Source: a virus. From it: 64,000 nt of DNA. The stretch is taken from IMG/VR virus record IMGVR_UViG_3300032294_001558, one strand, 5' to 3'. The position numbers and the translations under genes were made by a program. Every line of letters starts with the position of its first letter. Position 1 is the stretch's first letter. Below are positions 1,293 to 34,797 of the stretch, piece by piece. The notes beneath the pieces were generated by a model. That model was not told the origin of the DNA. It was given only the letters and a program-made list of their open reading frames with translations, and did not search any database.

Positions 1293-1549
1293 AGAAACAC
1301 AAAACCCCTGCTTGGTCTAGGGCTGAAGGTCAAAGCGAAAAGGGGGGCCTAAACGCCAAAGGCAGAGCCTCTTACAACCGTGCGAACCCCGGTAAACCGG
1401 GGCTTAAAGCACCGCAGCCTGAAGGCGGTCCAAGAAGGGATTCTTTTTGCGCCCGAATGAAAGGGATGAAAAAGAAACTCACTTCTGCGAAGACGGCAAA
1501 CGACCCAAATTCGCGGATCAACAAATCACTTAAAGCTTGGAACTGCTAA
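1289..1549 (+). CDS. small basic phage protein, function unknown
   Basis: ATG at 1289 overlaps the upstream stop (ATGA). K/G-rich, with GGLNAKGRASYN...SFCARM. The track ORF 1259..1549 uses an upstream alternative start. Confidence 0.5.
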   Translation: MKKHKTPAWSRAEGQSEKGGLNAKGRASYNRANPGKPGLKAPQPEGGPRRDSFCARMKGMKKKLTSAKTANDPNSRINKSLKAWNC

Positions 1550-1550
1550 C

Positions 1551-1727
1551 ATGAAACATGAGCTTTCTGAGCACACAAAGCAACTGGTAGACTTGGCATC
1601 TATCGTAACTGTCGTTGGTGCTCTCGTGGATTTTTTGCCATCTGTTGCAGCACTCTTTACCGTCATTTGGACAGGAATACGTATTTGGGAAACCGATACG
1701 GTCCAAGGTTGGTTTAAGAGGAAGTAA
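1551..1727 (+). CDS. 58-aa membrane mini-protein (below the track size cutoff)
   Basis: ATG 1551 lies 1 nt after the previous stop. The stop overlaps the next start (TAATG). Hydrophobic core LASIVTVVGALVDFLPSVAALFTVIWTGI. Confidence 0.45.
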   Translation: MKHELSEHTKQLVDLASIVTVVGALVDFLPSVAALFTVIWTGIRIWETDTVQGWFKRK

Positions 1728-2065
1728 TGCCGGTCAAGTCTGAAAAGCAGCGCCGGTTTATGTATGCGTCTTTGGCGGGCAAAACGAATGTCCCGCCTAG
1801 CGTCGCCAAGAAATTTGTCGGGCCTAAGGCCCATAACGACGGCGGGTCCGTCAAGGAGACTGACGTGGAATCTAAGAAGATGGTCAAACAGGAGCTTGCC
1901 TTCATGAAAAAGAAGGGTGCTCCTAAGTCGATGATCGCCCATGAGAAGAAAGAAGGCGGCATGAAAAAGGGCGGTGCCGCTAAGTACGCTAAGGGCGGCG
2001 GCATCGAGGCTAAGGGCAAGACCAAGGGTAGAGTCGTCAAAATGAAGTACGGCGGTACTTGCTAG
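1727..2065 (+). CDS. K/G-rich basic protein (DUF3008-like N-terminus)
   Basis: 112 aa. PVKSEKQRRFMYA resembles the KSxxQxRFM motif recalled from memory. Tail is YAKGGGIEAKGKTKG. Confidence 0.5.
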   Translation: MPVKSEKQRRFMYASLAGKTNVPPSVAKKFVGPKAHNDGGSVKETDVESKKMVKQELAFMKKKGAPKSMIAHEKKEGGMKKGGAAKYAKGGGIEAKGKTKGRVVKMKYGGTC

Positions 2066-2068
2066 GAG

Positions 2069-2434
2069 ATGGCTATGGATGCTCAGACTGACGCCGAACT
2101 TCGGCGTATCCGGGACACGGACGACCCAAAGAAGCGCAAGGCGCTGCTGGACGCGCTGAATGCGCGTACAAGGCCCTATCGCGCGCCGCGCGGCTCCCAG
2201 GCCGCTGAACCCCCTGCGCCCGCCCCTGCGCCCGCCCCTGCGCCCGCCTCAGCCCCAGCTTCGACCTCGACGTACAAGTCAACGCGTGTCGATCCTCGCG
2301 AAATCATTAAGCCGGAGATAACCACTAGGCGCCGTATGCGCGAAGCCGAAGAAAGCATGGGGTTCGCCAAAGGCGGGAAGGTTCGCGGCGATGGTTGTGC
2401 TCAGCGGGGCAAGACCAAGGGGACGATGCGTTGA
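2069..2434 (+). CDS. basic protein with (AP)n linker, function unknown
   Basis: 121 aa. AGGAG abuts ATG 2069, so ATG 2075 may be the real start. Tail FAKGGKVRGDGCAQRGKTKG is paralogous to the neighbouring genes. Confidence 0.45.
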   Translation: MAMDAQTDAELRRIRDTDDPKKRKALLDALNARTRPYRAPRGSQAAEPPAPAPAPAPAPASAPASTSTYKSTRVDPREIIKPEITTRRRMREAEESMGFAKGGKVRGDGCAQRGKTKGTMR

Positions 2435-2448
2435 GAAGCTCACGTGGC

Positions 2449-2634
2449 ATGGGGGCGATTCGTGAAGACCTCAAGTTTGCTAAAGGTGGCGGGCTGTACG
2501 CAAACATCCACGCCAAGCGGCAGCGTATTGCCGCTGGATCAGGCGAAAAAATGCGCCCGCCCGGCGCTCCCGGCGCTCCTACGCCCCAAGCCTTCAAACG
2601 GTCCGCAAAAACTGTAAAAGGTCCGAGGAAGTAA
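2449..2634 (+). CDS. small basic protein, function unknown
   Basis: ATG 2449 lies inside track ORF 2395..2634, which starts at TTG and overlaps the upstream gene. Contains KFAKGGGLYANIHAKRQRI. Confidence 0.4.
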   Translation: MGAIREDLKFAKGGGLYANIHAKRQRIAAGSGEKMRPPGAPGAPTPQAFKRSAKTVKGPRK

Positions 2635-2635
2635 T

Positions 2636-3427
2636 ATGCAGCGATACTTCGACGTTGTTCAAGACCGCAGCGGTAACGCTATCGCGGGCGCTTCGGTTTC
2701 TGTATACGTCGGTAGTACGTCTAACCTAGCGACTATCTATAGCGACAATGGTGTAACGCTGACCGCTAACCCGCTCACTACTAATGGTGACGGTGAATAT
2801 GCTTTTTATGCGGCAAACGGTACTTACACCCTTACTATTGAAGCTACAAACTATAGCTCCGAAAACAAGCCTGGAACGGTTCTTTTTGACCCGGCGGATT
2901 CTGTATCACTTGCTACTGGCTCGGTCAACTACCTCAATGTACTTGGCGGTAACACCCTACAGCCCGCAGTTGTTAGCGCGCTTGGCGGGGACGCCAGCAT
3001 CGGCTTGGCGCTGCGTCCGAAGGGTTCAGGCGCGATTCTGGCGCAGGATAGCGCGGGGCTCACTGTGGCCGAACTTGGTAGCACGGGTTCGCGGTTTCCA
3101 CGCGTAGCGTACTCGCCGTTTGTCTCGCTCACCGATCAGGCGTCGATTCTGTTGAATGGCTCGCTGGGGAACAGTTTCATTGTGACCCTGGCCGGCAACC
3201 GTACGCTGGCGAACCCCAGCAACCTCACGGATGGGGCGGTGTATAACATCTGGATCAAACAAGACGCCACTGGGGGCCGCACGCTAACTTACGGCTCAAA
3301 GTTTAAATGGCCTGGGGGCGTGGCCCCATCACTAACTACTGCGGCTAATGCGCTTGATTTCATGTCTTGTCAATACAATCTGGCACAAGACATTCTTGTC
3401 TGCGTTATGCAAAACGACGTCAAGTAG
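2636..3427 (+). CDS. tail-fibre/virion protein with beta-sandwich-like N-domain
   Basis: 263 aa. MQRYFDVVQDRSGNAIAGASVSVY..GDGEYAFY resembles N-domains seen in phage fibre proteins. Tightly packed in the virion block. Confidence 0.5.
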   Translation: MQRYFDVVQDRSGNAIAGASVSVYVGSTSNLATIYSDNGVTLTANPLTTNGDGEYAFYAANGTYTLTIEATNYSSENKPGTVLFDPADSVSLATGSVNYLNVLGGNTLQPAVVSALGGDASIGLALRPKGSGAILAQDSAGLTVAELGSTGSRFPRVAYSPFVSLTDQASILLNGSLGNSFIVTLAGNRTLANPSNLTDGAVYNIWIKQDATGGRTLTYGSKFKWPGGVAPSLTTAANALDFMSCQYNLAQDILVCVMQNDVK

Positions 3428-3436
3428 GCTGGTACT

Positions 3437-4165
3437 ATGACTGTTCTAAATAACAATGTAACACCAGTAAATAACGTATCTAACGCTGCGTTATTTAACC
3501 CAGACCTTAGCGAGATTGTTGAGGAAGCGTTTGAGCGCTGCGGCAGTGAGCTTCGCACAGGTTACGACCTGCGTACGGCGCGGCGGTCGATGAATCTGTT
3601 GTTCGCAGATTGGGCGAATCGGGGCATTAATCTATGGACCGTTGAGCAGGGGTCACAAGTACTGACGGCGGGCACTGCTACGTACACACTCCCGGGCGAT
3701 ACGGTTGATCTGATGGAGCATGTTATCCGTACGGGGGCGGGCAGTACAGCTACGCAGACCGACCTCACCATTACGCGTATCAGTGTTTCTACGTACTCGT
3801 CCATCCCGAACAAGCTGCAACAAGCGCGACCGATCCAGGTTTACATTGACCGACAACAAGCTGCGCCGAAGTTCACTGTGTGGCCGGTGCCGGATAGTTC
3901 TCAGACGTACACTTTCGTCTATTGGCGGCTTCGCCGTATCGATGATGCTGGGTCTGGCGGGGCCAACACGCAGGATGTCCCGTTCCGGTTCCTGAACGCG
4001 CTCGTCGCGGGACTTGCCTACTACCTAGCGCTGAAGATTCCTGGCGCGGCCGAACGCCTGCCGATTCTCAAACAACAGTATGACGAGGCGTGGGACTTGG
4101 CGAGCACTGAAGACCGCGAGAAAGCCGCGGTGAGATTCGTCCCCAGGCAGATGTTTATTGGGTGA
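3437..4165 (+). CDS. virion structural protein (possible adaptor), function unknown
   Basis: 242-aa ORF, co-oriented and tightly spaced in the structural block. No diagnostic motif. Confidence 0.45.
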   Translation: MTVLNNNVTPVNNVSNAALFNPDLSEIVEEAFERCGSELRTGYDLRTARRSMNLLFADWANRGINLWTVEQGSQVLTAGTATYTLPGDTVDLMEHVIRTGAGSTATQTDLTITRISVSTYSSIPNKLQQARPIQVYIDRQQAAPKFTVWPVPDSSQTYTFVYWRLRRIDDAGSGGANTQDVPFRFLNALVAGLAYYLALKIPGAAERLPILKQQYDEAWDLASTEDREKAAVRFVPRQMFIG

Positions 4166-4168
4166 CGC

Positions 4169-4819
4169 ATGTTCACGGTAGGCCCTGCTTTGCTTGGGAC
4201 CGGCGTAAAGATTTCATTTGTAGGGATCGGCACGCCAAACGCCAATATCAATTTTCCTACAGTTGTGCCGGCACACAATGCTGGTGACATAATTGTTACG
4301 CTTGATGTTGGCACTTCAGGAGTTATTCCCAACTTAAGATCGGGATATACTACGCTTTGCACTTGCAATGGGGCGTTTATTGGTGGCGCGCGACTTTCAG
4401 CTATTGCCGATACAAGTAATAGTATTACAAGTCTTGCGGCGGCGAGCGGGGCTGCTATGCCGCCGATAGTCGCAATATACAGAAACGCGCAAGTGAACCC
4501 GGGATCATTTGGAAGCGGTGTAGAAACAGTAGGTGGAAGCAATCCGCGTAATTGGCCTAGTCTCGCCGCATTTGTCGGTAGTGGTTCGTGGGTTATCGGT
4601 ATGCTGGGGACGAATAATCAATATCCGGTTGTGCTAACAGCCGGTGATACGCCGGGAATGGTGCAACGCACTATTAAACCGGCCGGATGGGGCGGCTCTA
4701 CATACGCAATTTTTGATTCAAACGGTGTTCTAAGTAGTTTTACAGGATACACATGGAATGCCAATGAAGCAGCTAGCACTGCGAACATTTCAGCCGCTGC
4801 CGAGTTGAGAAGGAAATAA
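4169..4819 (+). CDS. virion-associated protein, function unknown
   Basis: 216-aa ORF starting 4 nt after the previous stop. G/S/T/N-rich, fibre-like composition. Confidence 0.45.
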   Translation: MFTVGPALLGTGVKISFVGIGTPNANINFPTVVPAHNAGDIIVTLDVGTSGVIPNLRSGYTTLCTCNGAFIGGARLSAIADTSNSITSLAAASGAAMPPIVAIYRNAQVNPGSFGSGVETVGGSNPRNWPSLAAFVGSGSWVIGMLGTNNQYPVVLTAGDTPGMVQRTIKPAGWGGSTYAIFDSNGVLSSFTGYTWNANEAASTANISAAAELRRK

Positions 4820-4822
4820 AGC

Positions 4823-5206
4823 ATGGCAAATCGCTTTGCTAATGGCGCTAAAGCGTTTGGGTTTTGCGACGTTTGTGGGTTCCGTTTCAACCTGAAGAAG
4901 CTGAAGAACCTTACCGTCAAGACAAAGCAGACACAGATTCGCGCGTGCCCGCAGTGCTGGGTGCCCGATCAGCCGCAACTGCAACTCGGCATGTATCCCG
5001 TCGCGGATCCTCAAGCGATTCGCGACCCGCGCCCTGATACGAACACATGGGTTGCTTCCGGTACGGGCGTTTCCGGGTTCCCTGGCGAAGGCAGTCGTGT
5101 TACTCAGTGGGGCTGGGCTCCCGTAGGCGGCCCCAACGCAGTTCTGGGCTCCGTCGTCCCCAACGCCTTGCTTGGACAAGGTGTTCTTGGTACAGTGACC
5201 TTCTAG
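4823..5206 (+). CDS. zinc-ribbon protein, function unknown
   Basis: 127 aa with CDVCG...CPQC. Confidence 0.45.
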   Translation: MANRFANGAKAFGFCDVCGFRFNLKKLKNLTVKTKQTQIRACPQCWVPDQPQLQLGMYPVADPQAIRDPRPDTNTWVASGTGVSGFPGEGSRVTQWGWAPVGGPNAVLGSVVPNALLGQGVLGTVTF

Positions 5207-27055: not shown

Positions 27056-27463
27056 TTAAGACCTTCTAACGGTTACAGTGTACTTTGACTCGACATTCAT
27101 GCCTTTTGGCATCTTGTCAGGGTTAGACTTTAGGAATTCACTCATCGCGCGTTGCGCGATGCGCCGTTCAAGCAAATCTAGCGCGTTGTTCTCCTCGATA
27201 AACTTATGCATCGCCTCCCAATCAGATGTCCAGTAGCGGGTAGATACCCCACGAATAACTACACCAACACCGGGGATGCTGACATTGCCCCCCGCGCGCT
27301 TGCAGGTTTCAAGTAGGAATCCCTCTATCACTTCCATCTGGTCTTTGATCTTCTTATCTTCTTCTTCATATTTTGCCGACAGAGCACTACGTGCTTCTCG
27401 CATCTTTAAATACGCTCTGACCAGTACTGGTGTCGGCGGCAGTTCACTGTGCGTCTCTTGCAT
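27056..27463 (-). CDS. hypothetical replication-module protein
   Basis: 135-aa ORF packed between the helicase and the SSB-like gene. Confidence 0.45.
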   Translation of the reverse strand: MQETHSELPPTPVLVRAYLKMREARSALSAKYEEEDKKIKDQMEVIEGFLLETCKRAGGNVSIPGVGVVIRGVSTRYWTSDWEAMHKFIEENNALDLLERRIAQRAMSEFLKSNPDKMPKGMNVESKYTVTVRRS

Positions 27464-27503
27464 TGGGGCCTCCTAGACAGACTCGTAGTTTACATGAAAA
27501 CTT

Positions 27504-29975
27504 TTAGGCGTCAAGTACCTCCTTGTACAGGTTCAGAAGCGAATCGAGGCTGGCGGTCTTGGACTCCAGCGCTTCATACTGCTTACGCTCGACCGGGGAG
27601 CCGCAGAGCTTGACCACCAAGCAGGGGTTTTTCTGGCCCGCCCGGTGGACGCGAGCATTGGCTTGGTGCCAGATTTCGTTAGAGGTCACAGGCCCCCACC
27701 ACACGACAGTGTTGGCCGCGTGCAACGTCACACCATGCGAAGCAGCGGCGGGCTGAATCAACAGAATGCGTGGATCAGGTCCAGTCTGAAACGCCTTAAA
27801 TATTTCTGTACGTTTATGAGCAGCTACACCACCATGAACTACTTCTACTGTGTATCCGTCTTTTTTCAGTTGGTTCTCTAGATGGTCTATTGCGTGCCGG
27901 AAAGGGACGAAGACAAGAACTTTGTGTGTGCTTTCTTCTATCGCTTCTAGTAAAACATTATACCGATGTGTCATGTCGAACACTACGGTATTACCGTCGT
28001 CGGTATAGACCGCCCCACAGTTATGTACAATTAGCGGGGTGCCTGTAGCCCCCCGGACTACAAACCTACTGCGCGGCCCACAGTTTACAAGGTCGTAGAC
28101 TCGCTCCGTACCAGCGTAGTGAGCGCTTTCTCTAGCGGCCAGTTGTACCGAAACAGTCGCGCATGTAGCGTCGCTTTCTTTATACCGTAGACTTCCGCCG
28201 CCTGTGTTACCGTCAAACGGCCCTTTGGTGTATCCACCCACTGGTTGAACCGCGTATTGTTGGCTTGCTCCGTAGCCGTAGCCCATCGACAGTTCTCTGG
28301 ACTGTACGGGCCATTCACGTTTATCCGATCTAACGCCAAACCATCGGCGTACCCTTCCTGCATGTCGGCCCAGAAATTCGCAAACGACTCTTCCCAATGT
28401 TTGCAAACAGTTATCCCCCGTGCTCCGTAATTTTGGTAGTCTTTGTCTTTTGGGTCTAAACATCTCCGCCGCATACCGGACCATACGCGGTACGGGCGAG
28501 ATTGCGTCATTCTGTGCGTTTCGTTCCCGTGATGGCAACCACAACTCCTTGGGTGCACCCTCTTCGTATTGCGAAGATATTGGCTCTGCCTCTCCACAAC
28601 CGCCCCGCAATCGCATTGACACACCCACTTCGCGCACTGACTTCCGCGCACCGTTGACTCGGCTCGCGCTAATACCACCAGGAAGCCGAACCTCTGCCCA
28701 GTCAAGTCCAGCGCCCGTCGCACGGGGTTTGAGTATGTCATCTGCCGTCGCCCATCCGTCATTTGTAAGCACCTTATGATCTGCGGTCATACGAACCCCA
28801 GCAACGGTAACCAAGGGCTTTACACCCCGGAAGATCGCTCCTTGCTGGGCCACCCACTCCACGCCATCCCAAACGCGATGTTGTGGAGTAACGAGTTGGA
28901 TTGGTAACCAACCTACGTCGGTTAATACGTCTGTGTTATACGATATACATGCTACCTGTAAAAGCTTGTTAAGATTAGTAGCCGCATTGACCGACGTTAC
29001 GGTTTCTCCAGCGGCAGTCATTATAAACTGCTCTTTGAGGAGCTTGTAGTACTTAGACTGCTGCGGTGTGAGCGGGGCTTCGCGCGTGGTATACAGCAAT
29101 TCCGGCAGGTCTAAGCATTCATCTTTCGTAAATCTGATCGCTGGCTGTAGTATTTTGTTAATCGTTTCGGCTGCATCAGTCTTAGGTTTCCACCTAAACT
29201 GTGTGAGTTTATACATCACTCTATCGCGGAATGTATAGAAATTTGATGGTATTGATCCCGGGTCCATCATTTTAGCTAGGCCATAAGCGTCAGTAGGACT
29301 TTGCGAGGCAGGGGTGCCAGTCAACATCCACAGCCACGTATTCGGCTGAATTAATGAGTTGATCGCTCTCCATCTTTTGGTGGTGGCGGTTTTTACTGCG
29401 TTGGCTTCGTCGATTATTACCAAATCGAAACCGCTATCTTTCAGGTCTGGTAGGACTGTTTCGACGCCATCAAAATTTATGATGACAAACTCAGCATCGG
29501 ATTGTATGACTTTAGTACGTTTCTCTCTGCTACCGTGAGCAATATCTACCCTGCGGTGCATGACCGTTTTGAACAGGTCAGCGCGCCACGCCGAGTTCAT
29601 GATCGACAGTGGGCAGATCACCAAAACGCGTCTGACATGCCCCGTACGCAACAAGTAGTCCGCTGCCCACGCTACGCTTGCGGTCTTGGCGGTGCCCGGG
29701 TCGTTGAAACAATACGCTCTACGATGGAGTGTGAGAAACGAAGCTGTAGTCCGCTGGTGCGCAAATGGCGTATATATCCCCGGCCAGTTGTAGTGCTTTT
29801 CTATTGGCGATGGTACTTTCTTGACGCCTAGATTCTTTAGTACTTGGGACTCGTCTAGGCCCCAATAGACCAACACTGTGCCATCGGCTAGTTGTTTGGA
29901 ACGGGGGATCGTTGCGAGCACCCGCTCGGGGTGCCGCAACTTAAGAAGCAAAGCTTTGTTCTCTACTATCTGCAT
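27504..29975 (-). CDS. SNF2/SWI2-family helicase, intein-containing precursor
   Basis: 823 aa. Motifs DPGTAKT, LVIIDEANAVK and C-terminal QANARVHRAGQ. Interrupted by the Hint element 28020..28949. Confidence 0.8.
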   Translation of the reverse strand: MQIVENKALLLKLRHPERVLATIPRSKQLADGTVLVYWGLDESQVLKNLGVKKVPSPIEKHYNWPGIYTPFAHQRTTASFLTLHRRAYCFNDPGTAKTASVAWAADYLLRTGHVRRVLVICPLSIMNSAWRADLFKTVMHRRVDIAHGSREKRTKVIQSDAEFVIINFDGVETVLPDLKDSGFDLVIIDEANAVKTATTKRWRAINSLIQPNTWLWMLTGTPASQSPTDAYGLAKMMDPGSIPSNFYTFRDRVMYKLTQFRWKPKTDAAETINKILQPAIRFTKDECLDLPELLYTTREAPLTPQQSKYYKLLKEQFIMTAAGETVTSVNAATNLNKLLQVACISYNTDVLTDVGWLPIQLVTPQHRVWDGVEWVAQQGAIFRGVKPLVTVAGVRMTADHKVLTNDGWATADDILKPRATGAGLDWAEVRLPGGISASRVNGARKSVREVGVSMRLRGGCGEAEPISSQYEEGAPKELWLPSRERNAQNDAISPVPRMVRYAAEMFRPKRQRLPKLRSTGDNCLQTLGRVVCEFLGRHAGRVRRWFGVRSDKREWPVQSRELSMGYGYGASQQYAVQPVGGYTKGPFDGNTGGGSLRYKESDATCATVSVQLAARESAHYAGTERVYDLVNCGPRSRFVVRGATGTPLIVHNCGAVYTDDGNTVVFDMTHRYNVLLEAIEESTHKVLVFVPFRHAIDHLENQLKKDGYTVEVVHGGVAAHKRTEIFKAFQTGPDPRILLIQPAAASHGVTLHAANTVVWWGPVTSNEIWHQANARVHRAGQKNPCLVVKLCGSPVERKQYEALESKTASLDSLLNLYKEVLDA
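28020..28949 (-). mobile_element. mini-intein in the SNF2 helicase
   Basis: Cys-1 block CISYNTDVLTDVGW, block B MTADHKVLT, C-terminal PLIVHN followed by the +1 Cys. 310 codons, in frame with the helicase. Confidence 0.7.
28085..28762 (-). CDS. HNH homing endonuclease nested out of frame inside the helicase intein
   Basis: 225 aa in a frame offset from the helicase. Motifs CQCDCG..SCGC, YQNYGARGITVC, LDRINVNGPYSPENCRWATATEQANN. AAGGTG lies 8 nt upstream of the ATG. Confidence 0.65.
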   Translation of the reverse strand: MTDGRRQMTYSNPVRRALDLTGQRFGFLVVLARAESTVRGSQCAKWVCQCDCGAVVERQSQYLRNTKRVHPRSCGCHHGNETHRMTQSRPYRVWSGMRRRCLDPKDKDYQNYGARGITVCKHWEESFANFWADMQEGYADGLALDRINVNGPYSPENCRWATATEQANNTRFNQWVDTPKGRLTVTQAAEVYGIKKATLHARLFRYNWPLEKALTTLVRSESTTL

Positions 29976-30517
29976 TAACGCAACTCAAACTTACAAGCTG
30001 CCGCGCGTTCGATAAGGTCAAGGGCCTGGGTCGTAGCGTCATCAAGAGCGTTGTGCGGTACCCCTACGTTCTGCTTCTTCTCCTTCGTACCAAACATAGC
30101 CCGGATAGTTCGGTAGCAGCGGTCGTTCCAAAAATGCCAAGGGGTATCCATTTTCATGAGACGGTAGGCAGCGGCGAGCAGCGCATTATCAAAGTTTGCA
30201 CCGTTGCCCCAAACCACTGCTACGTCTTGTGGAGGCATCCACATAGAGAACTTAATGAGTGCGAGGTCGATTTTAAGCGTACCAGAAAATGCAGCAGTTC
30301 TGGCTTCTTCTGACTGTTTAGACCACCACTCCAAAGTACTTTTTTGCGCGCGGAATCCGGCTTCTTTACAGGACTCTGAGTCAATCGCAACATAGAATTT
30401 TTCGGCAATTCCTTTTTCGGCGCTGAACTTAACTGCGCCGATAGATAGGATCGTATCCCCCGGCCTTGTGCCCAGGGTCTCAAGATCAATCATTACATGC
30501 TTAAGATCGTTGTCCAT
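29975..30517 (-). CDS. DnaQ-like 3'-5' exonuclease
   Basis: 180 aa. Motifs MIDLETLG (Exo I), WGNGANFDNALL (Exo II) and HNALDD (Exo III). Confidence 0.7.
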   Translation of the reverse strand: MDNDLKHVMIDLETLGTRPGDTILSIGAVKFSAEKGIAEKFYVAIDSESCKEAGFRAQKSTLEWWSKQSEEARTAAFSGTLKIDLALIKFSMWMPPQDVAVVWGNGANFDNALLAAAYRLMKMDTPWHFWNDRCYRTIRAMFGTKEKKQNVGVPHNALDDATTQALDLIERAAACKFELR

Positions 30518-30610
30518 TTCTTCTCCTAAATACCAAGATGGTTCGATGAGGGGATCTCATCGAACCGTAGACCCCAATCTTGTTGGGGATTAAACCCGCT
30601 CTAAGCGGTG
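30518..30610 (-). promoter_or_regulatory. three consecutive stem-loops in an intergenic spacer
   Basis: 11-bp stem 30540..30566, 6-bp stem 30572..30588 and 5-bp stem 30596..30608. May act as a processing or attenuation site. Confidence 0.3.
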
Positions 30611-30877
30611 TCAGGCCCCGCTTCGCGGGCTCTTGTAGTTTTTTGCGCTGTTGGCGCTAAAAGACTTAAGCCGGACGTTCCCTGGCTTGCTTTTCCCACC
30701 ATCTTTGATGGGCTTGATGTGGTCTAGGGCTTTCCCTTCCCGGGAAGCTCGCCCGTGCTCTTTATCCCAAGCACGTCTAGCCCGCTGTCTTTCCGACTGC
30801 TTAGCCCGCCCACCATTTGCGAGGAAGTCTCTGTACTCTTTTTGGTGGTTTCTATCAGACTTGTTTTTGTAAGGCAT
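30611..30877 (-). CDS. small basic HNH-like protein
   Basis: 88 aa. LDHIKPIKDGGKSKPGNVRLKSFSANSAKN fits a minimal H-N-N/H motif. Confidence 0.4.
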   Translation of the reverse strand: MPYKNKSDRNHQKEYRDFLANGGRAKQSERQRARRAWDKEHGRASREGKALDHIKPIKDGGKSKPGNVRLKSFSANSAKNYKSPRSGA

Positions 30878-30914
30878 TCGTTATCTCCAAAATCCAATTC
30901 CAACTGGACCCAGT

Positions 30915-31586
30915 TCATGTATTAGCTCCATTATGGGGACAGGTAGTAACGACGCAATGGCGACGGCAAAGCCCCGACGGATTAGGGTTCCATACGTTTG
31001 TGCGGATTGCGGTTTCCAGTCGTTGGATATCTTGCATCCATTGCCGCCAGTAGACTTTTTCACGTTCTACTGTGTATTCAGCGGGCTTGAAGTGGTTCGC
31101 TACTACGAACAGCAGCCCGCCCTTGACCCTACGCACTGAGGGGAAGTGTTTGAAGACCAGCAAGGCCATCAACTCCAACTGTGCTGTATCTGCGTATTTG
31201 GCAGAGCGGCTCGTCTTGTAGTCCACGACCCGGGCAGAGCCTTTGTCCTCGTTGACGATCAGGAGGTCCACGACCCCCCGGCACCATACATCAGGCGCGT
31301 CAAACGCGCAAGGGTGCAGATCCTTGGTCAGGCCCATCTTGTGCTCGCACAGCTTAGTCCCGGGGATGTTTCGCAGGGCATCGAGGTGGGGCTTGACGTA
31401 GCCGAAGGCCCCAGGCAGGGGGGTGCCGTCTCGCACGTAAGACTCGGCTGCTTCGTGGAAATTCGTGCCGTATAGCGTAGCCTCTGTGAACGGTGGCTCC
31501 ACAAAGTTGCGGAAGACTTTTACCTCTGCATACTGTCTCGGACAAGTCTTAAATTTTTTTAGGCTACTAAACGACCACGCTTTCAT
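30915..31586 (-). CDS. PD-(D/E)XK nuclease, Cas4/RecB-like
   Basis: 223 aa. N-terminal CPRQY and C-terminal C..HC....CPH suggest an Fe-S cluster pattern. GVVDLL..D.K core. Confidence 0.6.
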   Translation of the reverse strand: MKAWSFSSLKKFKTCPRQYAEVKVFRNFVEPPFTEATLYGTNFHEAAESYVRDGTPLPGAFGYVKPHLDALRNIPGTKLCEHKMGLTKDLHPCAFDAPDVWCRGVVDLLIVNEDKGSARVVDYKTSRSAKYADTAQLELMALLVFKHFPSVRRVKGGLLFVVANHFKPAEYTVEREKVYWRQWMQDIQRLETAIRTNVWNPNPSGLCRRHCVVTTCPHNGANT

Positions 31587-31768
31587 CGCCTATTTTCTTC
31601 CATTATTGAAAGAGTATGCTGGAGCAGCCGCCCTTCGACACAAAGGCTCTCGGCCTTCAACCGCGCTTTTTCATATTCGTGGCTCAGACAAAGATGGTGA
31701 ATCTCTTTCGCAAGCTTTTCGATCTGTATTAGCGGCATTGCGTAGTCAACAATCTCGTCATTCTTCAT
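31583..31768 (-). CDS. hypothetical protein
   Basis: 61-aa ORF overlapping both neighbours by a few nt. Confidence 0.35.
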   Translation of the reverse strand: MKNDEIVDYAMPLIQIEKLAKEIHHLCLSHEYEKARLKAESLCVEGRLLQHTLSIMEENRR

Positions 31769-34535
31769 CAGCCATTTCCCCGTAATTATAGCCCCATTTG
31801 GACTCGCAGTTGATCGGCAGCCCCGCTGCCCAGGGAGGCACCCAACGCATGCAGGACTCGATGTAAGCCCGCGCCTCGCCTAGCTCGGCCTCGCGCACTA
31901 CGGCCAGAATACTATCATGGACGGTCAAGGCCACACGGTACTTCTTTGCAATGCGCAGCAACTGCGACATCACAATAATACGGGCGAGTGCCTGAGTACA
32001 GTTCTCAACCAATTTCCCGCCGTATATATCTACTAGTCCTGTGTCGTCTTTATACTGCCACCGCATTACTTGTCGGTTCGGGTCCTGTGTCCGGTGCAGT
32101 TGCGGGTAGCTGACGTACAGCCCGCTGGGCAGGCGCACGCCTTTCTTTCCCTCGATGAGCAGCACACCCTCGCGCCCGAGCCACCGGGTCTTGTTGGCGT
32201 GCATGGACTCGATGCACTGCTCGGCCTCGTACCACAGATTTTTGATACGGTCATTAGTCATGCGATAAATGTCAATGATCCGCTGGCACTCTTGAATATC
32301 AAGATCCATTGGCGGGTTTGCGGTCTTTAGCGTAGCCTGTAGTTTGAAGGCCCCGGTTTGGTAACCGCAATTATGTACGATCAGCGCCCCCGCTGCTGTC
32401 AACACAGTGAATCTGTTGTTCGGTCCTGCTAAGGCGATGTCGTAGGTCTGCATTTTCTGTTTTAAGACGCTCGATCTCCTGTTGTAGGACTGACACCCTG
32501 CGTCTATTGTTGGCGTTCTCGCCTCTAGTACACCACCGAAGATTCCCAGGTTCGTAGCCTTTATCGTTGTCGATCCGGTCAAGTTCAAGTAGAGGGTTGT
32601 CCCAGCCCGGCAGAGAAATGATGTATCGCAGAAACGCCCTGCGGTCTTTAGTCCACGCCGGATAAACTCGTATACCTCTCCCGCCGTAATTTTCGTACTG
32701 TCTACAAGTCGGTATTTCGCATCGGTTAATGCAGGAAGATATTCTATTAAGGAGGCGTTCTCTTGTTGCGTCATCTGGAACGGTGTCGGCATACCCCCAA
32801 TAGTGTTTGCGTGTTTTAGCAGACGCTTTCCTTGCGCAATCCCCGCATCTAGCAGTTTTTTTATTGATGAAGTTACTACGGTGAACAAGACCTTCCCATC
32901 CGCAAGTACACTTGACGCGCGGGTTCCAGCCTTCACTGTATCCGTTTTTCCGTAATTGTTGTTCCCAGCCAATGACGGTAAGGTCGCCCTGTTGAGTGCC
33001 GATTGGAGCAGGGAAGGGTTTGAATGGACCTCGGACCACGCCCGCCATCCATGTCCCGTCAGGATTTCGTGGTCCGCCGTGGCGTGCAACATCAAATCCG
33101 TTTGTGTTTCTGTTATTCGGTACCCCTGATTCAACAATCCGCTGTGGCTCACCCATGATTCCCCATCCCATAGTTTGTCAGATAGCTGGACCCGTACGAT
33201 AGTCTTCCAGCCTGAGTCTGTCAAGACTTGGGTATCAGGTCCGAAGCACCCGAGGACCACTGTTTTTCCTAGGAACCTTTCGTTCTTGTTAGCCTTCGTA
33301 ATTGGACGGCCGTAGATACGACTCGCCATTTTGCAATACACATCGACTCCGTTGGCGAAATCCTCAACAAGATCGTTCTGCCTCGCCAGCCACGCCAATA
33401 CCCGAGCTTCGATGTTGGACGAATCAGAATCAATCAGAACGTGCCCAGGCGGGGCTTCAATACATGCTTTGAGTTCTGTACCCCCTCGTGCAGGTAGGTT
33501 TTGAAGATTAATATTATCGCCGCCGCTCGTTCTTTTTGTTCTTGCGTAGCTATACTTGAGAGGGACTGGTAGTACTGGGTTACGCTTAGCGATGTCGATA
33601 AACGTACTTGTGCGGGTCTCCTCCAGCGTGCTTTTGGTCCCCAGGCGCGCAGCTACGGCGGTCTGCACTCGCTCATCAGGATGGTCCAGCAGGGCTTTAA
33701 GTCCGGGGTCGGTCTTAGCGAATGCGAACGCCGGTTTCCCCGTCGTCTTGCTGATCTTCATGGGCGGCTCGACACCCAGTTCCTTCAGTACCTCGGCAAA
33801 CTGCGGGTTCGACGATAGCCGCTCCTTACTGAACTCTGTCTTACTTAGAAGCTCTTCCTTGCGCTTGATCACCCCTGCGAGGTGCGCTTCCAGCTTCTCC
33901 TTGTTCAGCCGCAGCACAGGCTCCGAGAACATCCTGATATGCCGGTCGATGAGCCGCAACTCCTCCAGGGGGTAGTTGTCCCGCTTGTCGAACTCCTCGA
34001 TGTTGTACCAGCCCTCGGACATCGTGTGCCACATGTCGTAGCAAAGCTTAACGTCATGCAGGCAGTAGGCTGCGTATCGGCTGAACCCCTCGGAGGTGAA
34101 GTCTTCTCTACGCTTGCCCATCGCGTTTTGCACCTCGGTGCCCTTATCCTCGAAGCCGTACCGCTTGGCAAGCATGGCGAGAGAGTTGTTCCGGGACCCA
34201 AACATGGCACGGGCCATAGACAGGGTGTCTAGCCACGCGCGGGGATTAACGTCAAAGAGCCACGAGAAGATGGCTGAGTCGAACATCGTGTTGTGGCACA
34301 GCACGGCGTACTTACCCCAGTCTACCGCGTCCAGTCTATATTTGATGTCCGCGTGGGTGCCAGTGACCACTTCTGTAGTGCCATCGGGCCACCGAAGCCC
34401 GAGCATTATAACTTCAAATCGTGGGTCACGTACATACGCCTCAGTAGTTAGTTTTGTGAGGCTGTATTCTTTGTCGTAGTACGTTTCAAAGTCCGCGGTG
34501 ATTATTTCCATATGTCTCTCTAAACCACTGCTCAA
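31758..34535 (-). CDS. family-A DNA polymerase with 3'-5' exonuclease domain, intein-containing precursor
   Basis: 925 aa. Motifs ITADFETYY (exo), LIDSDSSNIEARVLAW (motif A), KTVVLG/[intein]/CGYQTG (motif B) and VHDS (motif C). ATG 34511 is an alternative start. Confidence 0.85.
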   Translation of the reverse strand: MSSGLERHMEIITADFETYYDKEYSLTKLTTEAYVRDPRFEVIMLGLRWPDGTTEVVTGTHADIKYRLDAVDWGKYAVLCHNTMFDSAIFSWLFDVNPRAWLDTLSMARAMFGSRNNSLAMLAKRYGFEDKGTEVQNAMGKRREDFTSEGFSRYAAYCLHDVKLCYDMWHTMSEGWYNIEEFDKRDNYPLEELRLIDRHIRMFSEPVLRLNKEKLEAHLAGVIKRKEELLSKTEFSKERLSSNPQFAEVLKELGVEPPMKISKTTGKPAFAFAKTDPGLKALLDHPDERVQTAVAARLGTKSTLEETRTSTFIDIAKRNPVLPVPLKYSYARTKRTSGGDNINLQNLPARGGTELKACIEAPPGHVLIDSDSSNIEARVLAWLARQNDLVEDFANGVDVYCKMASRIYGRPITKANKNERFLGKTVVLGCFGPDTQVLTDSGWKTIVRVQLSDKLWDGESWVSHSGLLNQGYRITETQTDLMLHATADHEILTGHGWRAWSEVHSNPSLLQSALNRATLPSLAGNNNYGKTDTVKAGTRASSVLADGKVLFTVVTSSIKKLLDAGIAQGKRLLKHANTIGGMPTPFQMTQQENASLIEYLPALTDAKYRLVDSTKITAGEVYEFIRRGLKTAGRFCDTSFLCRAGTTLYLNLTGSTTIKATNLGIFGGVLEARTPTIDAGCQSYNRRSSVLKQKMQTYDIALAGPNNRFTVLTAAGALIVHNCGYQTGAFKLQATLKTANPPMDLDIQECQRIIDIYRMTNDRIKNLWYEAEQCIESMHANKTRWLGREGVLLIEGKKGVRLPSGLYVSYPQLHRTQDPNRQVMRWQYKDDTGLVDIYGGKLVENCTQALARIIVMSQLLRIAKKYRVALTVHDSILAVVREAELGEARAYIESCMRWVPPWAAGLPINCESKWGYNYGEMADEE
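32370..33248 (-). mobile_element. mini-intein in DNA polymerase motif B
   Basis: CFGPDTQVLTDSGW, ATADHEILT, and ALIVHN followed by the +1 Cys. 293 codons in frame. Paralogous to the helicase intein. Confidence 0.7.
32371..33171 (-). CDS. HNH homing endonuclease nested out of frame inside the polymerase intein
   Basis: 266-aa ORF in an offset frame. Motifs CTCGW..CGDC, YENYGGRGIRVY, LDRIDNDKGYEPGNLRWCTRGENANNRR. The true start may be internal, for example ATG 33048. Confidence 0.6.
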   Translation of the reverse strand: MGWGIMGEPQRIVESGVPNNRNTNGFDVARHGGPRNPDGTWMAGVVRGPFKPFPAPIGTQQGDLTVIGWEQQLRKNGYSEGWNPRVKCTCGWEGLVHRSNFINKKTARCGDCARKASAKTRKHYWGYADTVPDDATRERLLNRISSCINRCEIPTCRQYENYGGRGIRVYPAWTKDRRAFLRYIISLPGWDNPLLELDRIDNDKGYEPGNLRWCTRGENANNRRRVSVLQQEIERLKTENADLRHRLSRTEQQIHCVDSSGGADRT

Positions 34536-34797
34536 GTAGATCGAGCGTATCTTCGCGGACCACCATTGCAGCGCCGCCCGCTTTATGGATAGCGGTGATC
34601 TCTCGCTCTTGCAGAGCGGTGGGTTTGTTATATCCGGCCTTGCATTCTACTGCAAGAAACCTGCCTCGGTAGCAGATGATGATGTCGGGTATACCCGCAC
34701 GACCGTAACCGTTCTGCGCGGGGAAAAAATGCCACGCACCATAGCGCGTGATAAGCTCTACGCACTTACGTTTGACTTTGCTTTCAGGTGTGGTCAT
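34486..34797 (-). CDS. VRR-NUC domain nuclease
   Basis: 103 aa. GIPDIIICYRGRFLAVECK matches the PD..(D/E)xK core of VRR-NUC. Confidence 0.7.
   Translation of the reverse strand: MTTPESKVKRKCVELITRYGAWHFFPAQNGYGRAGIPDIIICYRGRFLAVECKAGYNKPTALQEREITAIHKAGGAAMVVREDTLDLLEQWFRETYGNNHRGL

Follow-up and report, generated by a model that had tools for sequence, protein, structure and literature searches.

Our analysis of a 64,000-nucleotide (nt) stretch of viral DNA (IMG/VR record IMGVR_UViG_3300032294_001558; we call this whole stretch the window) shows that its family A DNA polymerase precursor gene, polA (31758..34535 on the minus strand, 925 codons from a mechanically assigned TTG start), is interrupted by an insert of 879 nt at 32370..33248 that encodes 293 amino acids (AAs 430–722 of the polA product, between VVLG and CGYQ). 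This insert is probably a splicing-competent class-1 intein within which a separately translated gene of the homing-nuclease type is overprinted on the same strand. The arrangement is real and widespread, and its general type has been described before (below). An original prediction, made from the letters of the window alone, had proposed a same-strand, out-of-frame HNH nuclease gene inside a polA intein; the frame-specific selection described below bears out the overprinting, and what is missing from the predicted "HNH" is its catalytic histidine. All features discussed here lie on the minus strand.

The polA intein

The polA open reading frame (ORF) matches the Pfam DNA_pol_A model (E=2.9e-23), and without the insert its product aligns to the Klenow fragment (E=9e-17). 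In that alignment the spliced sequence nerflgktvvlg/cgyqtgaf is set against Klenow eqRRsAKainFG/liYGmsaf (here and below a slash marks the insertion point or a splice junction), so the insert lies within motif B, the O-helix, between the residues aligned to Klenow G763 and L764. This agrees with the original reading of the site, KTVVLG/...AGALIVHN/CGYQTG, from which it had been concluded that motif B is split. More fully, the polymerase frame runs ...ERFLGKTVVLG/CFGPDTQVLTDSGW...ATADHEILT...AGALIVHN/CGYQTGAFKL, and its C-terminal intein junction is YDIALAGPNNRFTVLTAAGALIVHN/CGYQTGAFKL. A survey of relatives for empty sites found them in L087–L091, whose polymerases are 66–67% identical to this one and read ERF(L/V)GKTVVLG/CGYQTGA without interruption; the intein-less DNA of L088 at the junction is ...AAGACCGTGGTGCTGGGG/TGCGGATATCAGACCGGA.... 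These alleles give the exact boundaries of the intein and identify Cys+1 as a native extein residue. Likewise, among the best 80 polymerase relatives returned from IMG/VR (49–67% identical) the match lengths leave no room for an intein.

The insert is predicted to be a Hint domain (about 90 + 33 AAs) that contains an unstructured linker of ~170 AAs. In its AlphaFold model the N-terminal lobe (intein AAs 1–90, with blocks A and B; 32979..33248) has pLDDT (predicted local distance difference test) values of 86–98 and the C-terminal lobe (AAs 261–293, with blocks F and G, ...YDIALAGPNNRF...LIVHN; 32370..32468) values of 92–97, and those of the polymerase-frame linker (AAs 91–260; 32469..32978), which is open and not selected at the protein level, are 31–60. 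Cys1, T57-x-x-H60 (block B), D270 (block F) and H292-N293 (block G) are invariant in two alignments, one of 15 and one of 18 related inserts, and these are the residues that define class-1 inteins, which supports the identification; the +1 residue is Cys in the alignments, except for Ser in L018–L020. When a profile of these inserts was compared with all PDB sequences the top 12 matches were all inteins (the Mtu RecA mini-intein was best with E=2.6e-4, followed by the Neq Pol, Spl DnaX and Ssp DnaB inteins), and a Foldseek search of the PDB with the intein model placed Hint-domain proteins (inteins and BIL or Vint domains) in 48 of the top 48 positions (E down to 6e-4, probability 1.00 for most). 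A PDB search with the single intein sequence was only weakly suggestive (E=0.26). As a database query the intein protein has four matches and as a profile it has 31, mostly truncated gene calls; gene callers break such precursors.

The label "mini-intein" that had been given to this element does not suit its size. Mini-inteins are about 130–200 AAs long and have no endonuclease-sized insert, and this intein has 293 AAs, ~170 of them in the linker. As a protein it would behave like a mini-intein whose loop is long and disordered, and its intact catalytic residues, together with the essential O-helix that it interrupts, suggest that it is competent to splice.

The nested gene and its start

The +2 frame of the intein holds an HNH-like gene of 261 AAs when read from a conserved ATG at 33156 (32371..33156), or of 266 AAs when read from an upstream in-frame ATG at 33171 (32371..33171). 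The longer version is the ORF that had been predicted, and inspection of the sequence bore out its +2 offset, the motifs CTCGW...CGDC, YENYGGRGIRVY and LDRIDNDKGYEPGNLRWCTRGENANNRR that it contains, and a stop inside the HN codons of the splice junction. This TAA is made up of the T of CAT (His292) and the AA of AAT (Asn293), and its position is a by-product of CAT-AAT; in relatives the nested ORF ends at this position or up to 64 nt before it.

Translation of the nested gene likely starts at ATG 33156, judging from the conservation of this codon and the sequence that precedes it. Among the 18 members of what we call lineage 1 (elements with the +2 offset; see below), 12 have an ATG at this position, intein nt 93, where the last base of codon 31 and the TG of the conserved Trp32 codon make it up; the exceptions are one clade with its ATG at nt 99, and L018 and L019, which have one only at nt 78. 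Two nt upstream of ATG 33156 is a Shine-Dalgarno-like (SD-like) sequence, TGGGATGGGGAA (33159..33170), that coincides with Hint codons W27-D28-G29-E30 (TGG GAT GGG GAA). Its predicted pairing energy with the anti-SD sequence, -6.9 kcal/mol, is in the top 7% for the internal ATGs of the window and stronger than the median for long-ORF starts in the window (-4.85), and the corresponding energies in relatives are -6 to -10.7 kcal/mol. ATG 33171 was rejected as the start, since it has no SD-like sequence (+0.7 kcal/mol) and is not conserved. The +2 frame is closed by a stop one or two codons before the nested ATG in phage FSL SP-101 and in L009, L016, L017 and L021, so the nested protein must initiate there, and neither read-through nor a frameshift fusion can produce it. 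A weak candidate for a sigma-70-like promoter, TTGACA-17-TATCGT, is present at 33196..33224, with its -35 box on the Leu-Thr codons of Hint block A (VLTD). It has 10 of 12 matches (three such sites were found in the region where 1.9 are expected), and 13 of 18 relatives have their best promoter-like match at this position; synonymous resampling gave P=0.008 in the window and was significant in only three of 12 members.

Canonical inteins carry their nucleases in frame, and phage polymerase genes often hold group I introns with HNH genes (PMC3428280), so we also considered whether two programmed ribosomal frameshifts (into the +2 frame and back) join the two frames, or whether the insert is a group I intron that carries a nuclease gene. 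Frameshifting would need two conserved shift sites, and the stops immediately before the conserved ATG in several members led us to reject expression of the nested protein as a frameshift fusion. A search of 27400..34700 against Rfam matched no intron family and gave, at E≤1, only a spurious internal ribosome entry site; moreover, the polymerase frame is held open by selection and the ends of the insert fold as a Hint domain. A group I or group II intron was therefore rejected as well, and we find explanations of either kind hardly credible.

Frame-specific selection

The polymerase frame has no stop codons within the intein, the nested frame has three (all outside the nested ORF) and the third frame has 27; the linker region alone has 17 third-frame stops and no polymerase-frame stop. 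Synonymous shuffling of the nested ORF put a mean of 4.7 polymerase-frame stops into the 182 central codons, with P(0 stops)=0.0002, and the same test on five relatives gave P≤0.013. Selection was measured against the closest relative, L007 from IMG/VR, whose exteins are about 80% identical and whose intein aligns without gaps. In the Hint-coding ends (intein nt 1–231 and 781–879) the polymerase frame has an omega of ~0.2 (pN ~0.11–0.16 and pS 0.39–0.48; pN/pS is about 0.11/0.40 in the N-lobe, nt 1–231, and omega is 0.23 in the C-lobe), and omega is 1.0–2.7 in the nested +2 frame and 0.9–2.2 in the unused frame. In the centre (nt 232–780) the nested +2 frame has 76% AA identity with pN 0.17 and pS 0.76, the polymerase frame has 41% identity with an omega of 1.56, and the unused frame has 45% identity with an omega of 1.38, so that constraint on the polymerase frame is there indistinguishable from that on the unused frame. 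Thus, purifying selection passes from the polymerase frame to the nested frame and back again over the length of the element; for the ~550 nt in the middle it acts on the +2 frame only, and the polymerase frame is merely kept stop-free there.

These results bear on the idea that the nested ORF is a decaying, unexpressed relic of a free-standing homing endonuclease gene, kept open by constraints on the polymerase frame. Such a relic might well go unannotated, as the nested ORF is in the GenBank records inspected, and might well suffer truncation, as the second nested ORF of L016 has (to 169 AAs), but it should not show strong purifying selection in the nested frame over a centre that has none at the protein level in the polymerase frame. 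In addition, the nested ORF is intact in all 18 members of lineage 1, at 40–80% divergence and with a conserved ATG and SD-like sequence, and AlphaFold gives a confident model of its product. We consider a relic very improbable.

Relatives and mobility

When GenBank phages were searched by tblastn with the nested protein, the best matches were found inside polymerase genes; the best relatives are in EBPR siphovirus 2 gp51 (49.5% identical) and in about 150 Salmonella phages, mostly Jerseyviruses. Some of the Salmonella phage records annotate the intein. In IMG/VR every one of the 15 closest relatives of the nested protein (full-length identity of 40–74%) is nested at +2 in a longer ORF, 14 of them at the same polA motif B site and one (L021) in an SNF2 helicase gene, and the more distant matches (≤37%) are all free-standing genes. 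The lineage-1 element is common to Salmonella Jerseyviruses, EBPR siphovirus 2 and 14 IMG/VR contigs, at one site and in one frame, its internal ATG and SD-like sequence being conserved, and polymerases that share it may otherwise be only 26–31% identical over the extein segments compared. Among 14 non-redundant members there are 66 pairs with extein identity <35%, and in all 66 both the Hint and the nuclease identity exceed that of the exteins (means of 45% and 47% versus 29%), which points to horizontal transfer among divergent polymerases. Among phages, a search for distant DNA similarity yielded only a 51-nt match to mycobacteriophage HNH genes.

Two contigs show host-gene switching with the frame offset kept. 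L021 (3117-5639 of IMGVR_UViG_3300050138_000151) carries a lineage-1 (+2) element in its SNF2 helicase gene (VLARNL/C...VVHN/CWDCIDF), and L172 (IMGVR_UViG_3300037156_000185) carries an element of a second lineage (lineage 2, offset +1; below) at a second SNF2 site (PVLAIHPN/C...FIVHN/SASHGLNL). Both lineages are present in the single 1278-AA polymerase gene of L016 (IMGVR_UViG_3300002732_000012), at AAs 450–735 and 894–1199; lineage 1 is at motif B, and close to the C-terminus there is an APSE-like element of lineage 2 (LKTYGGKL/CLAKGT...PLIVHN/CENICQAA), where the nested ORF is open for only 169 AAs and may be decaying. HNH-like homologues also lie under genes annotated as dUTPase in Enterococcus phage TJE2 (H85), Staphylococcus phage vB_SauM-V1SA15 (H99) and Streptococcus phage phiGBSVK-C_GBSInt4 (H134), and these could be further nested or misannotated copies. 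In L168 (ENA scaffold LIAN20-1..._214, 1413..4979) and L167 (157..1525) the nested ORF has been called, and the N-extein is uncalled or the polymerase split, an illustration of the damage that such elements do to automatic annotation. Most database homologues of the nested protein are on contigs of ~1 kb, probably because gene callers break the annotation around nested ORFs.

The helicase element

A second intein, of 310 AAs (28020..28949), interrupts the SNF2 helicase gene of the window (27504..29975), and it too contains a nested HNH-like gene, of 225 AAs (28085..28762; phrog_374, E=2.3e-61). The offset of this gene is +1, not +2. Its selection follows the pattern of the polA element: the centre, when compared with L169, which carries a helicase-type element at the same SNF2 site, has an omega of 0.12 in the +1 frame and 1.54 in the helicase frame. 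A tblastn search of the window found no third Hint or HNH-like copy.

The original prediction took the two elements to be paralogues and proposed that an intein with its overprinted nuclease gene had, as one composite mobile unit, colonised two essential genes. Their proteins are indeed related, but only 38% of Hint-N, 52% of Hint-C and 35% of a 110-AA part of the nuclease are identical. At the DNA level alignment shows no similarity between the two inteins (blastn found nothing better than E=0.35), and the two differ in the offset and start of the nested gene (+2 and intein nt 93 in polA; +1 and intein nt 188, after block B, in the helicase) and in the C-terminal module of the nested protein (a coiled coil in the polA element, a helix-turn-helix-like (HTH-like) tail in the helicase element). 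The closest nested relatives of the helicase element are elsewhere, in APSE-7, Caulobacter phage GB2A and Shewanella phage SFCi1, at a polA site near the C-terminus (...HN/CEN...), and others are in SNF2 helicases, at the same site in L169 and at the second site in L172; all of these have the +1 offset. A recent duplication within the genome was rejected on these grounds, and the two elements are independent acquisitions from two sister lineages, one of each. The idea of a composite mobile unit is supported in general, since each lineage retains its own frame offset and start position in more than one host gene and site, and the Hint domain and nested gene behave as a unit; what does not hold is that a single unit colonised both genes here.

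The nested protein

Three protein families labelled "HNH endonuclease", phrog_374, 3377 and 2081, match the nested protein with E=5e-29 to 1e-20 (4.8e-29 for phrog_374), and it has 632 database homologues at E≤1e-5. Its AlphaFold model has a mean pLDDT of 85.5 and is less confident in the first ~45 residues, the part that overlaps the coding sequence of the Hint N-lobe. A zinc-ribbon-like CxC...CxxC motif (C83, C85, C104 and C107; 32836..32910) is followed by a beta-beta-alpha HNH_3-like motif, LELDRIDNDKGYEPGNLRWCTRGENANN (AAs 191–217; 32506..32586), modelled with strands at 191–194 and 206–209 and a helix at 211–216, and then by a long helix or coiled coil (AAs 221–256; 32389..32496), modelled as helix by AlphaFold, whose tail overlaps Hint blocks F and G and which has weak bZIP and leucine-zipper matches. 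All four Cys are invariant in 74 homologues, and together with the 35-residue C-terminal helix they point to a zinc ribbon and to a coiled coil for dimerisation.

In an hhalign comparison with the homing endonuclease I-HmuI (1U3E) only the HNH_3-like motif aligns (E=0.012, probability 3.5%), with LELDRIDNDKGY-EPGNLRWCTRGENANN of the nested protein paired with LVVDHKDGNKDNNLSTNLRWVTQKINVEN. In this register Asp193, Asn205 and Asn217 correspond to I-HmuI Asp74, Asn87 and Asn96, which we take to be metal-binding and structural residues, and Arg194 falls on the His of the DH motif, presumably the general base His75. D193, R194 and N205 are invariant and N214 and N217 nearly invariant in the 74 homologues, and D/E-R is found at the motif in 46 of 47 sampled relatives (GR in the other), a sample biased in that the search pattern included IDNDKGYE. 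The nested protein thus does not have, at the end of the first beta-strand, the catalytic His by which HNH or His-Me finger nucleases are recognised, and its nuclease activity is therefore only putative. Our searches found no characterised member of this D-R subfamily. The HNH link rests on the PHROG labels and one hhalign motif, since Foldseek and PDB profile searches found nothing significant, and we regard the HNH identity of the protein as partly established; it is HNH-like, and its behaviour as part of a mobile element suggests that it is a nuclease.

Some of our results weigh against the reading given at the outset. No intein model of Pfam or NCBIfam reaches threshold on the Hint domain, and the internal promoter over block A is a lead only, its statistics being unconvincing. 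Between the window and L007 the exteins and the element are about equally diverged, which is consistent with vertical descent and not with recent homing. The nested family is without any invariant His and has Arg at the position of the I-HmuI DH His; no Pfam or NCBIfam HNH model matches the nested protein at E≤0.1, and neither Foldseek against the PDB nor the PDB profile search gave a significant HNH match. The most serious alternative to a nuclease is that the intein is real and the nested product is a DNA-binding or regulatory protein, derived from HNH, whose catalysis was lost with the change of His to Arg, with roles such as targeting recombination, recruiting another nuclease or regulating replication, in an element that is mostly inherited vertically. 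The invariant D/E-R at the catalytic position, the failure of curated HNH models and of solved HNH structures to match significantly, the zinc ribbon and coiled coil, which suggest DNA binding and dimerisation, and the seemingly vertical window–L007 pair all fit such a protein. On the other hand, the positions aligned with I-HmuI D74 and N96 (D193 and N217) are conserved, as is N205, and the whole family, free-standing members included, has D/E-R and yet behaves as mobile homing endonuclease genes scattered in phages; the sporadic distribution with empty sites and the stronger conservation of the element than of its hosts also speak against it. We think this alternative unlikely, and still favour an overprinted gene of the homing-nuclease type.

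Comparison with known systems

Out-of-frame nucleases in inteins have already been published, so the arrangement is no longer conceptually surprising. Actinobacteriophage inteins have an endonuclease VII-like nuclease on the same strand in "frame 3", which was reported as new (bioRxiv 10.1101/2025.01.02.630785), and a cyanobacterial dnaX intein has a +2-frame LAGLIDADG nuclease, for which a frame-specific selection test was made (bioRxiv 10.64898/2026.09.14.751524); passages in these two preprints credit anti-sense nuclease cases in inteins to Gorbalenya 1998. The polA element shares with these non-canonical inteins a same-strand, out-of-frame nuclease gene placed between the splicing blocks, an unstructured linker in the host frame, frame-dependent selection and a sporadic distribution with intein-free alleles; the origin proposed for them is likewise a mini-intein invaded by a free-standing homing endonuclease gene. 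It differs in its nuclease, which is phrog_374 HNH_3-like with a zinc ribbon, a coiled coil and an Arg where the catalytic His would be. Its hosts are others too, being Gram-negative and uncultured phages with elements in polA motif B, the second polA site and SNF2 helicases, and the polA and helicase elements form two lineages with fixed offsets (+2 and +1) whose start and SD-like signals are in conserved Hint codons. Our literature search found no paper on this nuclease family, these hosts, two lineages with fixed offsets or start signals embedded in Hint.

The closest parallels to the polA element are the polA inteins of the Jerseyviruses (e.g. FSL SP-101, KC139511, and vB_SenS-Ent3, NC_024204), which are labelled "intein" or "intein-containing DNA polymerase precursor", and that of EBPR siphovirus 2 gp51. 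They share the motif B site, the Hint lineage, a +2 nested ORF with its ATG at intein nt 93 and a nuclease that is 46–50% identical; they differ in the low identity of their polymerases (26–31%) and in a nested stop that lies 28–61 nt before the intein end. The APSE polymerase inteins, known to be variably present (PMC7313666), belong with the helicase element and not with the polA element: those of APSE-7, GB2A and SFCi1 have, like the helicase intein, a +1 nested ORF that starts just after block B, an HTH-like C-terminus and very similar blocks F and G, but are in another gene and site, near the polA C-terminus. Hidden out-of-frame HNH genes without a splicing domain are known from mycobacteriophage methylases (PMC11855218). 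The ShiLan-domain insertion described there is similar in its hidden HNH, open host frame and stop near the end of the insert, but it has no detectable splicing domain, whereas the polA insert has a complete Hint domain; its authors found no ribosome-binding site and proposed a leaderless GTG start, unlike the SD-like sequence and ATG of the polA element.

I-HmuI and the HNH_3-type phage homing endonucleases are alike in the aligned motif and in their ties to phage polymerase genes. I-HmuI, which we take to be intron-encoded, differs in having His where the nested protein has Arg194, and there is no significant global match between the two in sequence or fold.

Surrounding genes

The genes near both elements (29975..34797) form a replication module. 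Read by eye, a 180-AA gene directly upstream of the helicase gene (29975..30517) appears exonuclease-like, a small protein (30611..30877) HNH-like, a 223-AA ORF (30915..31586) Cas4/PD-(D/E)XK-like and a 103-AA ORF (34486..34797) VRR-NUC-like. The listed TTG start of polA has no Shine-Dalgarno-like sequence (-0.6 kcal/mol); ATG 34511 (MEIITADFETYYDK; -3.5 kcal/mol), to which Met1 of the FSL SP-101 protein aligns, is a possible alternative start.

Proposed mechanism and implications

We propose that the Hint domain would splice itself out after translation, by an N-S shift at Cys1 and attack by Cys+1, followed by cyclisation of Asn293 aided by His292 and an S-N shift; this would restore the O-helix and yield a polymerase of 632 AAs. 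The nested protein would be made by internal initiation at ATG 33156, driven by the SD-like W-D-G-E codons, possibly on a transcript from an internal promoter that overlaps block A. It would then cut or nick the intein-less polA of co-infecting phages near the motif B codons, and recombinational repair would copy the Hint domain and nuclease gene together (homing). The helicase element, from the sister lineage (+1) and separately acquired, would act in the same way.

A more specific suggestion, possible but rather doubtful at present, is that a His-less branch of HNH_3 proteins drives homing, through unusual chemistry, as a nickase or with a partner, and that Hint codons double as expression signals for the nested gene. 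If this is true, block A would hold the -35 box in its V-L-T codons, the W-D-G-E codons would hold the SD-like sequence and the ATG would stand on the Trp32 codon, and the whole would be a fully self-contained cassette of two genes, overprinted over its entire length, that moves between unrelated essential genes (polA motif B, the polA C-terminus and two or more SNF2 sites), a snapshot of a free-standing homing endonuclease gene and a mini-intein in the course of fusing into a canonical intein.

One practical consequence is that roughly 150 Salmonella phage records, together with those of APSE, the Caulobacter and Shewanella phages and EBPR siphovirus 2, hide a full-length gene in a polymerase intein, which gene callers miss or around which they split the polymerase. 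The absence of the catalytic His raises an enzymological question about proteins with the D-R motif, and the tolerance of a Hint domain for a disordered insert of ~170 AAs may serve protein engineering. The clean handover of selection from frame to frame is a clear natural example of the limits of dual coding in overlapping genes. Finally, the two lineages, with offsets and start positions that stay fixed in different host genes, are direct evidence by comparison that a nuclease gene translated on its own can travel with a splicing domain as a unit, and they support the model of intein origin in which the splicing domain came first and a free-standing nuclease gene invaded it later.

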